Below are positions 16,161 through 30,188 of a DNA stretch of 34,562 nt, piece by piece (positions within the stretch are counted from its first letter, which is position 1; the number at the start of each line of letters is the position of its first letter). The notes under the pieces were generated by a model. That model saw nothing but the letters and a program-made list of their open reading frames with translations. It searched no databases and was not told where the DNA came from. The position numbers were made by a program, and so were the translations under genes. The DNA is from a bacterium (lineage in GTDB: Bacteria > UBA10199 > JADGCS01): assembly GCA_018812345.1 (NCBI GenBank), contig JAHJDR010000077.1:1-34562 (forward strand). The letters run 5' to 3'.

Positions 16161-17552
16161 CTAAGAAGTTTGCTTATGCACAATAATTTTCTGATTTACA
16201 AATGTATAGAAAAGTAGGTGTTTGATACGATAGTTAAATATCACAAATCCCATAAGAAGCGAGATAAGACAGCTGCCAAAATACCCATAACCATACCAAG
16301 AAAATCCTAGATAAATAGAAAGACGTGCAAAAACAATATTAGTGACGGCAAAGATAATAGACATAATCAGGGCATCTGTTCTAAAATCAAAGTACAAAAT
16401 GATAATTAAGAGTGTCTGTAGCAAGGCTTGGAGAAACGTTGCTAAAATGGCAATTTGAAAAACACCTAAGTTAACGGCAGACATGCTGAGATAGTCATAA
16501 ATAACTGGCGAGAGTCCTAAGCCAACCATAGTGATAGTGCCTTGGAGGACAAGGAGACGTCCCAAACTTAATTGAAGATCTTTAATGATGTTTTTCCGGC
16601 GTTCTTCAATGGCAAAATAGGGGTGTTTGTTTAATATAGAAAGAAAATATTTCTGATAATGTATGTAAAAACTTGTTTCAATGCGTACCGTAAACATAGC
16701 CAAAGAGGGAACAATAAAGAGGTAGGCCAAAAAGACTGGTGTGTCATAAACATAGGATGCATGCAGAAAGTTGTGAACCTTTTCATTCGTTTCCGGGGTA
16801 AACCAGAAGACAAATTTATCACCCCAGACACCAATATTATAGAAGGTTGCAATAAAGGCCAGAGAGGCAAAGCGTTTAAAGTATGATATAAAATACCATT
16901 CAACACGCATTCGATAGTCAAATTCTGTGAATATCTGGAGAACAAGTAAAATGACTAATACAACTTGGCCCATCGTAAATCCTGAAATAAGTCCCATGAG
17001 ACCGTAGTCAGAGCAAAGAAAACGGCCTGCCAACACACTAATGCTGGCACCAATGAGAAAAGAAATAAACAATCGGTGGAATTCCTTTGCTGCTGACAGC
17101 ACAATCATGGCAATCCAAAGAATGCCGATATTGACAAAGAGGACAATAGCCATGATTTCTGTTCCAAAATCAAGATCAAGGTACAGAATGCCTACAAACC
17201 CAATAATAGCGTGTAGGATCATAGAGAGTATGGTCATACCAACAAAAGAGGGCACAAGGGCCTTGTAGTCCTTGAGGAATATCTTATCTGCCATGTAGCG
17301 TGTGATAATCATTTGCGCTGGAGACGAGGTAACAAGTGATACACCATAAATGTAAACGACGAGTGTGCGAAAAATCATGACATCTAATGAACTTACGCGA
17401 TCATTTGCTACCCAACTGAGTAAGGCGATAGAAAAAATCGTACATAAAAGAGGGCCTGCAGAAACCATAGCAGCATAGGCATAGCCTTCTAAGAGGTTTG
17501 TATAAGAGTTTTTCGAGAGGATTTTTTCTAATCTAAATCCAATTCCAGCCAT
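16161..17552 (-). CDS. pelG: PelG-like polysaccharide export / synthase-complex membrane protein
   Basis: 463 aa and about 12 hydrophobic helices. The N-terminus MAGIGFRLEKILSKNSYTNLLEGYAYAAMVSAGP matches my memory of the PelG MAGIGF... start. It is the last gene after pelF, as in pel operons. Confidence 0.8.
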   Translation of the reverse strand: MAGIGFRLEKILSKNSYTNLLEGYAYAAMVSAGPLLCTIFSIALLSWVANDRVSSLDVMIFRTLVVYIYGVSLVTSSPAQMIITRYMADKIFLKDYKALVPSFVGMTILSMILHAIIGFVGILYLDLDFGTEIMAIVLFVNIGILWIAMIVLSAAKEFHRLFISFLIGASISVLAGRFLCSDYGLMGLISGFTMGQVVLVILLVLQIFTEFDYRMRVEWYFISYFKRFASLAFIATFYNIGVWGDKFVFWFTPETNEKVHNFLHASYVYDTPVFLAYLFIVPSLAMFTVRIETSFYIHYQKYFLSILNKHPYFAIEERRKNIIKDLQLSLGRLLVLQGTITMVGLGLSPVIYDYLSMSAVNLGVFQIAILATFLQALLQTLLIIILYFDFRTDALIMSIIFAVTNIVFARLSIYLGFSWYGYGYFGSCLISLLMGFVIFNYRIKHLLFYTFVNQKIIVHKQTS

Positions 17553-17562
17553 AAATCGGTTT

Positions 17563-17644
17563 CCGTTTTCCGTTATCCGTTATCCGTTTTCCGTTGTCTC
17601 TTTTGGTTTTCTGTTTACGGGAACCGGACAACGGTCAACGAGCA
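17563..17644 (-). repeat. CCGTTWT-heptamer hairpin inside the pel-like operon, in the pelF-pelG spacer
   Basis: On the plus strand, CCGTTTT CCGTTAT CCGTTAT CCGTTTT CCGTTGT (17563-17597) sit opposite ACGGGAA CCGGACA ACGGTCA ACGAGCA (17617-17644). For 17577-17594 / 17617-17634, 16 of 18 positions pair on either strand. Confidence 0.8.
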
Positions 17645-17645
17645 A

Positions 17646-28935: not shown

Positions 28936-28983
28936 GAGTGAATGACTAACATTAAATTTATTGTTGTTCAATTTCTTATGACA

Positions 28984-29820
28984 TTAGGGATGGTAAAAGA
29001 TTTTAGTGAGGTGAATGTCTGAAATATAGGGAATAAACCCGTCATTTTTAGCTTGTTCTGTGACTTTCTTCATGCCTTTTATGTCAGATGCTTTAAGGTA
29101 TTCGAGAGGCAAGACGGGTTTTTTATGTTTCATGTAGAATGCCTTGAGAGGTGTTTTGCGATTTTGGGTCCATGATTTTTTAGCAAGTTGGTATTTATTT
29201 ATTTTAAAGTTGTATGTTGTATAAACATCCTCAACAACAAGGGCGTCAATGTGTTTTCCAATTTGGTCTAAAATAAATAATCCGTTGTTCATGACCATAA
29301 TAAGTTTTGGGTATTTTTTTCGGATTTTATTGATGAGTTGAATGGCTCCTGCTATGCTGCCACGCATTTTTTTGTCCTCTTCAAGATATTGAGCGGTGTC
29401 AATGGTATCAATAAAAATACCATCAAAACCTTTTGCTATTGTTTCAGGAATGACTTTGTTCAAGATAATAGTATGCCATTTTTCATGTCCTATTTGAACA
29501 CGAATAGCATCAGGCCAACGGGGGTTTTTATCGACAAGAAGTTTTCGCATTTTTGTTTCTTTGTAGTGTGCATCATGTATATTGACTTCTCCAAAAGAAA
29601 CATAGCCCACAGTTTTTCCCCCGTGTTTTTTTATCGTATTCAAATCAGGATGTTTATTACGATCAAGGATGTAGAGATCGTAATTATAAGTAAATGATGG
29701 CGGGAAAGTGTCTTTGTAAAAACATAACCAGGAATTCAAATTGTTTAATGAATGAGCTGCTATAACTGTTTGGGGTAGGATAAAAGTCAAAAGGGTGCAG
29801 ATGAAGAGAAATCTTTTCAC
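28984..29820 (-). CDS. Secreted PelA-hydrolase-like (GH114/GH166-type TIM-barrel) glycoside hydrolase
   Basis: 278 aa with a GTG start and signal peptide KRFLFICTLLTFILPQTVIAAHS. GYVSFGEVN and KGFDGIFIDTIDTAQY resemble the endo-alpha-1,4-polygalactosaminidase / PelA-hydrolase motifs. There is a 1-nt overlap (TAGTG) with the upstream receiver gene. Confidence 0.68.
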   Translation of the reverse strand: MKRFLFICTLLTFILPQTVIAAHSLNNLNSWLCFYKDTFPPSFTYNYDLYILDRNKHPDLNTIKKHGGKTVGYVSFGEVNIHDAHYKETKMRKLLVDKNPRWPDAIRVQIGHEKWHTIILNKVIPETIAKGFDGIFIDTIDTAQYLEEDKKMRGSIAGAIQLINKIRKKYPKLIMVMNNGLFILDQIGKHIDALVVEDVYTTYNFKINKYQLAKKSWTQNRKTPLKAFYMKHKKPVLPLEYLKASDIKGMKKVTEQAKNDGFIPYISDIHLTKIFYHP

Positions 29821-30188
29821 TAAGTGAGATATGATCGAATTTTGTCTAAGAGCTCTTTGGTTTCAAATGGTTTGACAACATAATCATTAGCCCCAGCTTC
29901 CATAGCATTTTGAACATCTTCTCCGCGACCAAGAGCTGACAAGACAATGACAGGTGTTTCTTTAAGGTCGGTATTGGCGCGAATGATTTTGATCATTTCA
30001 ATGCCTGTCAGTTCAGGCATCATGATGTCTGCCAAAATGAGGTCTGGTTTTTCAGACATAGCTTTGAAAGAGCCTTCTTTTCCATTTTCAGCAGTGATGA
30101 CTTCATAATCGTTGGCTTCAAGGCGGAACCTCAAGGTTTCCAGTAACATAACTTCATCATCAACAACTAAGATTTTATTTGCGGCCAT
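29820..30188 (-). CDS. Stand-alone CheY-like response-regulator receiver, first gene of the pel-like operon
   Basis: 122 aa from ATG 30188 (MAANKILVVDDE...). AGGAGA lies 7 nt upstream. DD, LILADIMMP Asp, VLSA and VKPF Lys are all present. The track's 147-aa version adds 25 non-receiver residues and would cover the putative promoter. Confidence 0.88.
   Translation of the reverse strand: MAANKILVVDDEVMLLETLRFRLEANDYEVITAENGKEGSFKAMSEKPDLILADIMMPELTGIEMIKIIRANTDLKETPVIVLSALGRGEDVQNAMEAGANDYVVKPFETKELLDKIRSYLT

Follow-up and report, generated by a model that had tools for sequence, protein, structure and literature searches.

A recurrent clade of Pel-type exopolysaccharide operons with a co-inherited receiver and HEAT-repeat protein

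The window analysed here is a 34,562-nt stretch of contig JAHJDR010000077.1 (assembly GCA_018812345.1), whose minus strand carries ten open reading frames between positions 16161 and 30188. In the direction of transcription their order is a first receiver (RR1), hydrolase, deacetylase, PelB, a second receiver (RR2), PelD, PelE, HEAT protein, PelF and PelG. These genes and their flanking elements are as follows:

30189..30321, no strand assigned: intergenic region between divergent genes, containing the likely operon promoter
29820..30188, minus strand: RR1, a stand-alone CheY-like receiver of 122 aa whose gene is translationally coupled to that of the hydrolase
28984..29820, minus strand: homologue of the PelA hydrolase domain (GH114 in Pfam, GH166-like), periplasmic, 278 aa
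26884..28935, minus strand: CE21-type deacetylase part of PelA, periplasmic, 683 aa, or 695 aa if started at TTG 28971
23895..26789, minus strand: PelB-like protein of 964 aa with an N-terminal membrane anchor, a TPR array and a C-terminal beta-barrel
23506..23883, minus strand: RR2, a stand-alone CheY-like receiver of 125 aa, 4 nt upstream of pelD
22101..23501, minus strand: PelD-like candidate c-di-GMP receptor, 466 aa
21098..22099, minus strand: PelE-like protein, 333 aa
19109..21097, minus strand: HEAT-repeat alpha-solenoid of 662 aa, cytoplasmic, between pelE and pelF
17646..19112, minus strand: PelF glycosyltransferase of 488 aa (DUF3492 N-terminal domain and GT4)
16161..17552, minus strand: PelG, a polytopic inner-membrane protein of 463 aa
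16003..16033, no strand assigned: 14-bp GC-rich hairpin between the convergent ends of rplQ and pelG

Recomputation of the reading frames, gene by gene, reproduced the order and every junction listed in the initial annotation. RR1 and the hydrolase gene share one nucleotide (TAGTG), the deacetylase gene follows after 12 nt (to TTG 28971) or 48 nt (to ATG 28935), and the subsequent junctions are 94 nt to pelB, 11 nt to RR2, 4 nt to pelD, 1 nt to pelE, 0 nt to the HEAT gene (TAAATG), an ATGA overlap with pelF and 93 nt to pelG. Position 30188 is the ATG of RR1, with AGGAGA just 5' of it. About 25 nt upstream of this ATG, the minus strand carries TTGTCA, a 17-nt spacer and TAACAT with a TG extension (30242-30214), a likely operon promoter as judged from its consensus match, promoter-like matches in this region being no more frequent than expected from shuffled sequence. 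At the other end, the hairpin at 16003..16033 lies between the stop codons of the L17 gene (15975) and pelG (16161) and is followed by TTTTATT on the plus strand; it is the strongest terminator-like site of the region and a likely terminator.

The ten genes constitute a genuine synthase-dependent exopolysaccharide operon of the Pel family. Profile HMM searches, sequence searches against solved structures and fold searches bore out all proposed gene roles, including those of the deacetylase and PelD-like genes, which have no Pfam match. Likewise, the core PelD/E/F/G set was recognisable as had been claimed, PelF and PelG by NCBIfam and Pfam matches, PelD by fold and family-profile matches, and PelE by family profile and position. 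PelF matches the NCBIfam PelF equivalog NF038011 at 2.7e-146 (488.5 bits, cutoff 100) as well as the Pfam families DUF3492 (1e-78) and Glycos_transf_1 (3e-34), and is approximately 40-45% identical to PelF from canonical loci. The adjoining PelG, encoded downstream of pelF, has multiple hydrophobic segments by hydropathy and matches Pfam PelG (PF16933) over its full length (1-452/452; 3e-123, 412 bits).

The product of the 466-aa frame consists of about four transmembrane segments, a long coiled coil, a GAF domain and a degenerate GGDEF domain, and the Pfam search returned no PelD-specific model for it. Its family profile matches GAF domains as well as the DgcR GGDEF domain (6zxm, 1.7e-6). The GGDEF signature is fully degenerate, with SPNDK in place of GGEEF; RxFD (R388, D391) aligns with the RxxD I-site of DgcR, and across 32 family members D391 is invariant and R388 nearly so, the motif being kept in the wider family as well. 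An AF2 model (pLDDT 82.7) searched against the PDB gave P. aeruginosa PelD as the top five and 8 of the 13 top matches (4eu0, 4etz, 4etx, 4euv and 4dn0; E = 3e-9 to 4e-8), at a sequence identity of only 15-17%, and the narrow family profile recovered the gene in the D slot of 56 of 59 canonical loci (median E = 2e-47). The assignment as PelD-like is thus upheld by architecture, best fold match and profile homology to the canonical D-slot gene, and the one retained motif (R388, D391) suggests that this protein may sense c-di-GMP. Between PelD and PelF, the PelE-like protein combines two or three N-terminal transmembrane segments, predicted from hydropathy, with cytoplasmic HEAT/TPR-like helical repeats that give weak HEAT_2 and TPR matches in Pfam. 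The transmembrane segments are conserved in the family alignment, a PPP motif is invariant, and the family profile matches the E-slot gene in all 59 canonical loci (median E = 2e-10).

Both enzymatic parts of PelA are present as separate genes with their catalytic residues kept. The hydrolase matches Glyco_hydro_114 (3e-23), and its best sequence match among solved structures is the PelA hydrolase domain 5tcb, aligned over the whole domain (E = 2.7e-12); E197 in VVED (195-198) aligns with the glutamate that is mutated to alanine in entry 5tsy. A start at GTG 29820 exposes an N-terminal signal peptide that homologues share; it would be lost in the public gene call of 251 aa, which starts later. 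The deacetylase frame has no match in Pfam and aligns by phmmer with PelA 9cgy (E = 2.3e-78; chain residues 257-335 and 439-858). The catalytic base, metal triad and catalytic acid known from PelA (PMC12022489) are represented in it by HIDGDG (267), HGWSH (339), NENIYTN (450) and YYHF (487), the H-x-D-x-D, H-x3-H and YYHF patterns all being kept, and the start at ATG 28935 likewise exposes a signal peptide conserved in homologues. The initial annotation correctly described PelA as split; as a distinctive trait, however, the split did not hold, because hydrolase and deacetylase are also separate in 12 of the 13 canonical loci sampled. The fused form was found in only one of these 13 environmental loci, a rarity in this sample that corrects the common assumption of a fused PelA.

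The proposal of a PelB-type TPR-porin was confirmed by matches to multiple TPR families (E down to 1e-21) and by homology of the barrel to the canonical PelB C-terminus. In the C-terminal ~300 aa the beta-amphipathic moment is higher, and the sequence ends in an invariant YRF. A direct scan of this domain gave no match to the Pfam barrel model for PelB, whereas hhalign paired its family with a PelB C-terminal protein bearing B-barrel_PelB_C (PF24604) at a probability of 91.7% (E = 7.6e-7 over 275 columns), and the C-terminal profile matches the PelB C-terminus located just upstream of PelC in canonical loci. The missing PelC was also borne out: the narrow gap between pelB and RR2 (11 nt) is all that lies there before the receiver gene, where the gene for this outer-membrane lipoprotein would stand between pelB and pelD, and a PelC HMM built from 20 loci found nothing in six frames of the 34.5-kb window. 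PelC is missing from 10 of the 11 receiver- and HEAT-bearing loci with a readable PelC slot. It could be encoded elsewhere in the genome, and export would proceed without an operon-encoded PelC. By homology, cytoplasmic PelF (GT4) together with the inner-membrane proteins PelG, PelD and PelE is predicted to synthesize and translocate the polymer, which the periplasmic stand-alone GH114/GH166 hydrolase and CE21 deacetylase would trim and partially deacetylate and the PelB-type TPR-plus-barrel protein would export. The host is an uncultured and, given a full PelB with an outer-membrane barrel, probably diderm bacterium. Judging from the P. aeruginosa system, the operon most likely yields a polymer that is rich in alpha-1,4-GalNAc and partially de-N-acetylated.

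Two embedded CheY-like receivers had been predicted, and both match Response_reg (RR1, 1e-28; RR2, 3e-19) with complete phospho-acceptor pockets. Positions were assigned against the E. coli CheY sequence. The Asp pair, D54, S84 and K106 of RR1 align with CheY D12, D13, D57, T87 and K109, and the corresponding set of RR2 (the Asp pair, D56, S86 and K108) is conserved in all orthologues; RR1, RR2 and all of their orthologues match the five pocket positions (Asp-Asp-Asp-Ser/Thr-Lys). RR1 and the GH114 gene are both present in six related loci (L005, L009, L011, L014, L015 and a JGI contig), whereas L010 and L012 have lost the two jointly and carry a GHL10-like glycosidase in the slot. No kinase is encoded in the window. 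Among related loci, L015 has a histidine kinase directly upstream, L014 has an upstream HATPase_c protein, and L007/L009 are flanked by Hpt, extra receivers and CheR.

The large protein reported between pelE and pelF is indeed a HEAT-repeat protein within the synthase block, as indicated by a HEAT_2 match (5e-28, four stretches) and by its AF2 model, an all-alpha solenoid of 43 helices (pLDDT 87.6). The tandem helical hairpins are typical of the HEAT/PBS-HEAT class: the family profile matches alphaRep and PBS-HEAT proteins at 3e-34, and its fold matches are the importin-beta, SF3B1, CAND1 and PP2A-A scaffolds. A sequence scan revealed neither a signal peptide nor a convincing transmembrane segment. 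The gene is translationally coupled on both sides, to pelE and to pelF. A word-indexed protein search recovered only about 17 full-length relatives, with a solenoid of ~630-670 aa across the clade, and in the loci of these relatives the gene always lies between pelE and pelF. PelE, PelD and PelF are of normal length in HEAT-bearing loci, and the HEAT protein is therefore an addition and not a fission product. It evolves fast, with ~16% identity between the two PelF groups described below and only nine near-invariant positions, and the family alignment does not allow a conserved docking site to be named.

The same gene order was identified in L005, L009-L012, L014-L016, L018-L023, L025-L028, L030 and the JGI contig, with protein identities of only 33-69% and, in a second group, of ~16-27%; at least 18 non-redundant loci from MAGs or metagenomes carry it. 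The PelF sequences of the recurrent loci form two well-separated groups and one outlier, and the clade accounts for 10 of the best 80 PelF matches in metagenomes. As the order is conserved across independent, divergent MAGs and metagenome contigs, the arrangement is far beyond chance, and the operon is a member of a distinct, recurrent clade of pel loci rather than a unique case. A receiver lies directly upstream of pelD in all 11 HEAT-bearing loci with a readable upstream region and in none of 46 canonical loci; L018 and L025 also carry it. Co-occurrence of the two genes is strict, both being present in 11/11 and neither in 46/46, counts that do not represent 57 independent events because the loci are phylogenetically related. 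Neither a HEAT protein nor a response regulator is mentioned for pel loci in the literature searched, including the papers cataloguing pel operons. The architecture therefore does not appear to have been catalogued already; prior cataloguing was what the initial annotation had named as a ground for withdrawing its proposal. The clade is distinguished by its co-inherited RR2 and HEAT protein, both cytoplasmic.

Combined control by c-di-GMP and phosphorelay, as originally suggested, is a reasonable inference because PelD keeps the RxxD site and the phospho-acceptor pockets of the two receivers are complete. Synteny, translational coupling and co-occurrence suggest that RR2 and the HEAT protein may be physically tied to PelD, PelE and PelF. 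With a probability of roughly 0.6, the locus encodes a Pel-like synthase in which c-di-GMP sensing persists and to which a co-inherited RR2/HEAT module has been added, through which phosphorelay input reaches the complex. The HEAT solenoid might be an additional scaffold subunit, present in stoichiometric amounts in the PelDEFG complex and bridging the cytoplasmic domains of PelE and PelD and soluble PelF, and phosphorylated RR2 could dock on the HEAT protein or PelD and gate the recruitment or activity of PelF. Synthesis would then depend on two signals, c-di-GMP sensed through the RxxD site in PelD and input from a phosphorelay of the two-component or chemosensory kind. RR1, which is inherited together with the hydrolase gene and translationally coupled to it, probably connects the locus to this phosphorelay or to another one. 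A more specific version, a phosphorylation-gated clutch in which RR2~P on HEAT or PelD recruits or releases PelF in AND-logic with c-di-GMP while the PelB barrel exports without PelC, is put forward tentatively, as something that could be so but is doubtful.

The conservation data effectively refute the idea that passenger insertion or misannotation accounts for the HEAT and receiver genes: these genes occupy the same positions in the non-redundant loci across wide divergence, with intact frames, confident structure models and coupled junctions. Single-domain receivers often serve as phosphate sinks, and RR2, RR1 and the HEAT protein may be regulatory hangers-on rather than subunits of the synthase, the receivers acting as sinks or connectors for a pathway with its true output elsewhere and the HEAT protein as a transient assembly chaperone or stabiliser, for example in PelF folding or membrane targeting. 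The lack of a kinase in the window agrees with this, and the poor conservation of HEAT between the two groups would suit a generic chaperone or scaffold. However, the tight translational coupling inside the D-E-F block and a position that is invariant even though PelD is only ~24-27% identical across loci argue for stoichiometric co-production, and the strict pairing of RR2 with HEAT is hard to square with unrelated processes, which makes this explanation rather unlikely.

The polymer itself might be chemically unlike Pel, with the extra subunits and the lack of PelC reflecting another substrate or export route. Divergent pel operons may yield different polymers (PMC7112194), and the moderate identity of PelF to canonical loci, the absent PelC and the GHL10-like replacement of the hydrolase in L010 and L012 could be read in this way; but PelF scores far above the equivalog cutoff and both catalytic domains of PelA, whose substrate in Pseudomonas is alpha-1,4-GalNAc, retain their catalytic residues, so that a different product seems unlikely. 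It is quite improbable that the phosphorelay has replaced c-di-GMP, leaving PelD with a structural role and RR2~P as sole allosteric activator. The missing PelD-specific Pfam match, the low identity to P. aeruginosa PelD and the degenerate GGDEF signature are in line with such a replacement; yet the I-site is kept throughout the family, and the GGDEF domain of P. aeruginosa PelD is also degenerate although it binds c-di-GMP (4dn0 and 4euv are c-di-GMP complexes).

Pel is among the most widespread biofilm matrix polymers. To our knowledge, the PelDEFG synthase complex is structurally unresolved, and c-di-GMP binding to PelD is the only post-translational control of the Pel synthase that has been described. 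The favoured arrangement, a Pel-like synthase with an added RR2/HEAT module, gives an opportunity to test whether a phosphorelay can feed straight into an exopolysaccharide synthase, and a large rigid HEAT scaffold may help to stabilise the Pel complex for structural work. PelB barrels that apparently work without PelC bear on why PelC is essential in Pseudomonas. If the clutch were true, it would be the first synthase-dependent exopolysaccharide machine gated post-translationally by a phosphorelay directly on the complex.

The operon shares with P. aeruginosa pelABCDEFG both PelA domains, PelB, PelD, PelE, PelF and PelG in the order A-B-D-E-F-G, and differs in that PelA is divided into two genes (common among environmental loci), PelC is missing, a receiver precedes pelD, the HEAT gene is placed between pelE and pelF, and the hydrolase gene is coupled to another receiver gene. 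The Gram-positive pelDEA(DA)FG operons of the Bacillus cereus type are similarly non-canonical: their deacetylase stands alone, PelC is lacking and PelD consists of GAF and degenerate GGDEF domains; no receiver or HEAT subunit has been reported for them (PMC7112168, PMC7112194). In contrast to these, a full PelB with an outer-membrane barrel is encoded here. BcsE of the E. coli-type Bcs cellulose secretion system contains a degenerate receiver-like domain. This system (BcsE/BcsQ/BcsR) resembles the present operon in combining a c-di-GMP-controlled synthase with operon-encoded cytosolic regulatory or scaffold subunits (PMC8892547). The proteins are unrelated, however, and the present operon has canonical, phosphorylatable-looking receivers and a HEAT solenoid scaffold. 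Phosphorelay or Che-like input also controls exopolysaccharide output in the Wsp system of P. aeruginosa and the Dif/EpsW system of Myxococcus, a likeness extended by the Hpt, receiver and CheR genes flanking the related locus L007/L009. Whereas in Wsp the receiver is part of a GGDEF cyclase fusion and works via c-di-GMP, the receivers described here lack an output domain and their genes lie within the synthase operon, an arrangement that points to control by direct protein-protein contact.

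The initial annotation had described ten tightly coupled ORFs running in one direction on the minus strand, and this arrangement was reproduced exactly at 16161-30188 by ORF listing and by reading the junctions directly. In operon order the genes encode a stand-alone CheY-like receiver (RR1), the PelA hydrolase (ORF2), the PelA deacetylase (ORF3), PelB (ORF4), a second stand-alone receiver (RR2), PelD (ORF6), PelE (ORF7), a HEAT-repeat protein (ORF8), PelF and PelG, and the junctions between them measure, as claimed, -1 (TAGTG), 12 or 48, 94, 11, 4, 1, 0, -4 (ATGA) and 93 nt. 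AGGAGA precedes the ATG start of RR1 at 30188, and the GTG 29820 and ATG 28935 starts of the hydrolase and deacetylase genes each expose a signal peptide, and these signal peptides are conserved in homologues. The former overlaps the RR1 stop, and the resulting signal peptide is kept in three orthologues (28984-29820); the public gene call for this GH114 hydrolase begins at TTG 29739 and yields a protein of 251 aa from which the signal peptide is lost. A 7-nt unit repeated in tandem about five times (17555-17595; TTTCCGT on the plus strand, ACGGAAA on the coding strand) takes up much of the 93-nt pelF-pelG spacer, the length of which varies from 9 to 80 nt in relatives.

On one side the operon converges on the end of the S10-spc-alpha ribosomal cluster (rpsD, rpoA, rplQ). 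On the other, at 30322-33260, genes for a carbon-nitrogen hydrolase, for an agmatine deiminase of Porphyromonas type and for a NIF3 protein diverge from it; the hydrolase and deiminase pair looks like an agmatine-to-putrescine pathway. Ribosomal protein L17 (15361-15975) is 204 aa long with a Pfam domain confined to residues 20-115, implying that about 85 aa extend it at the C-terminus. No c-di-GMP riboswitch or other leader RNA was found in an Rfam scan, and matches in a promoter and terminator scan were overall not above shuffle expectation, with a promoter candidate in the divergent region and a hairpin between rplQ and pelG singled out. The hairpin has a perfect 14-bp stem (16003-16033), lies between the two convergent genes and may be a bidirectional terminator. 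The GC content is 34-41%, and the closest SecY relatives of the uncultured host are groundwater-type MAGs labelled Deltaproteobacteria, Pseudomonadota or 'uncultured bacterium ACD_62C'.

The ten genes include those for a complete Pel-type machine minus PelC. PelF matches the NCBIfam equivalog NF038011 at 488 bits (cutoff 100) and also has DUF3492 and GT4 domains, and PelG matches PF16933 over its full length (3e-123). The best solved-structure relative of ORF2, a Glyco_hydro_114 protein (3e-23), is the PelA hydrolase domain 5tcb (2.7e-12), and the glutamate by which mutant entry 5tsy departs from the wild-type one is conserved in ORF2 as E197. ORF3 and ORF6 have no match in Pfam or NCBIfam, and their identities were settled by PDB sequence and profile searches, structure prediction and fold search. 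ORF3 aligns with the part of PelA 9cgy that follows the hydrolase domain (2.3e-78) and retains the motifs HIDGDG, HGWSH, NENIYTN and YYHF, the counterparts of the catalytic base, metal triad and catalytic acid by which CE21 deacetylases are defined (PMC12022489). The split of PelA, put forward earlier as a distinctive trait, is not special, as hydrolase and deacetylase are encoded separately in 12 canonical loci (pel loci without the HEAT gene) and fused in one. RR1 travels with GH114, and in two of the MAG or metagenome loci compared, L010 and L012, a GHL10-like glycosidase replaces both. A 681-aa ORF directly after pelG in L010 (14793-16838, equivalent to 14805-16850 in locus L006) has no Pfam match and no counterpart in the window.

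PelD has roughly four TM segments and a long coiled coil in addition to its GAF domain and degenerate GGDEF domain. P. aeruginosa PelD chains are the top five PDB fold matches to its model (pLDDT 82.7) and 8 of the top thirteen, and a narrow PelD family profile matched the D-slot gene in 56 of 59 canonical loci (median E 2e-47). The profile of PelE, which combines N-terminal TM segments with HEAT/TPR-like repeats, matched the E-slot gene in all 59. With a sensitive profile search the PelD family reaches thousands of TM-GAF-GGDEF proteins. Loci L029 and L034 show a rearranged order, pelF-pelG-pelD-pelE, and an unusually long PelD-like ORF (734-739 aa) with an extra domain.

PelB combines an N-terminal anchor with many TPRs; its C-terminal domain, about 300 aa long, is beta-amphipathic in character and ends in an invariant YRF. 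A Pfam scan at E <= 10 assigned this domain to no barrel family, the Pfam PelB barrel model not being matched directly; its profile aligns by hhalign with the PF24604-bearing PelB C-terminus of a relative (91.7% probability) and also matches the PelB C-terminus that adjoins PelC in canonical loci. Between the PelB C-terminus and the following gene there are 15-116 nt in HEAT loci (those with a HEAT gene between pelE and pelF), as against 958-1006 nt in canonical loci, where the gap constitutes the PelC slot. The PelC HMM found no match in the window or in HEAT loci, L018 excepted. PelB is split into two genes (~420-456 aa TPR; ~570-620 aa TPR and barrel) in L005, L011, L014, L020 and a JGI contig, and the same fission has been reported for other pel clades (PMC7112194).

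In word-indexed protein searches the HEAT protein had about 17 full-length relatives and PelD about 34 close ones, and all contexts examined around them have the same gene order. The neighbourhoods of three distant PelD-family proteins are as follows.

P0180 (27% identity): HK-RR-RR-GH114-deacetylase-PelB-RR-PelD-PelE-HEAT-PelF
P0199: RR-PelD-PelE-HEAT-PelF-PelG
P0317: PelA-PelB-PelC-RR-PelD-PelE-HEAT

A metagenome scan seeded with PelF gave 80 loci, and census labels were taken from HMM domain matches on stop-to-stop translations. The HEAT gene sits between pelE and pelF in 10 of these 80, and a tally of 88 non-redundant loci has 18 such cases. Immediately before pelD there is a receiver in 11/11 HEAT loci with readable upstream sequence, compared with 0/46 canonical loci. 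The HEAT loci form two well-separated groups and one outlier in a PelF neighbour-joining tree, and HEAT proteins share only about 16% identity between the groups; the architecture is therefore old, and the tree does not settle the monophyly of the HEAT-bearing loci either way.

The receiver and HEAT pair in the cytoplasmic block is strictly co-inherited and translationally coupled, and the notion that these genes are passengers is hardly credible. The HEAT protein is a 662-aa cytoplasmic HEAT/PBS-HEAT solenoid (HEAT_2 5e-28, alphaRep 3e-34), and its model (pLDDT 87.6, 43 helices) matches importin-beta-like proteins; the fold search returned generic solenoid scaffolds and no functional lead. 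An origin by PelE duplication was considered, and hhalign gave single-repeat similarity only (36% probability), so that nothing but the common repeat type speaks for PelE-HEAT paralogy. The idea that the HEAT protein has a conserved site for binding nucleotide or phosphate was dropped as well, because RLGKFG and IRRRG are restricted to the window's own group and absent from the second. The HEAT protein has plausibly joined PelDEFG as an extra scaffold subunit; that the receivers and HEAT are instead regulatory hangers-on or a chaperone, outside the synthase, is unlikely.

Both receivers are single-domain proteins with every CheY phospho-chemistry residue present. Hpt, extra receivers and CheR flank the pel locus in L007/L009, and a HisKA/HATPase_c kinase and an additional receiver precede it in L015 (1348-3181); RR1 and RR2 may receive their signals from such neighbours. 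A HATPase_c protein adjoins the pel locus in L014. The signal would come from a kinase or Che-like system, encoded in the window's genome elsewhere than at the locus, and phosphorylated RR2 may bind HEAT or PelD and thereby gate PelF. In PelD, R388-x-F-D391 aligns with the RxxD I-site of DgcR, and SPNDK stands in place of GGEEF; PelD probably still senses c-di-GMP, and replacement of c-di-GMP by the phosphorelay is quite improbable. A polymer differing from Pel is unlikely; the missing PelC speaks for it, the retained catalytic residues of both PelA domains against it.

Two catalogue papers on pel diversity (including PMC7112194) describe pelB fission, pelA rearrangement, locus gain and Gram-positive pelDEA(DA)FG operons, and neither mentions response regulators in pel operons. 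In the literature searched, 'HEAT repeat' did not co-occur with PelF and PelG, and full-text searches found nothing relevant on HEAT or a receiver together with Pel proteins; within these sources the receiver and HEAT order is not catalogued. The core is the familiar Pel one, with an added module whose mechanism is unproven. The operon would work as Pel does: it agrees with the Pel system in every membership trait tested except PelC and adds a two-protein receiver and HEAT module, previously undescribed within the literature searched, which gives the Pel field a clear lead that can be tested.
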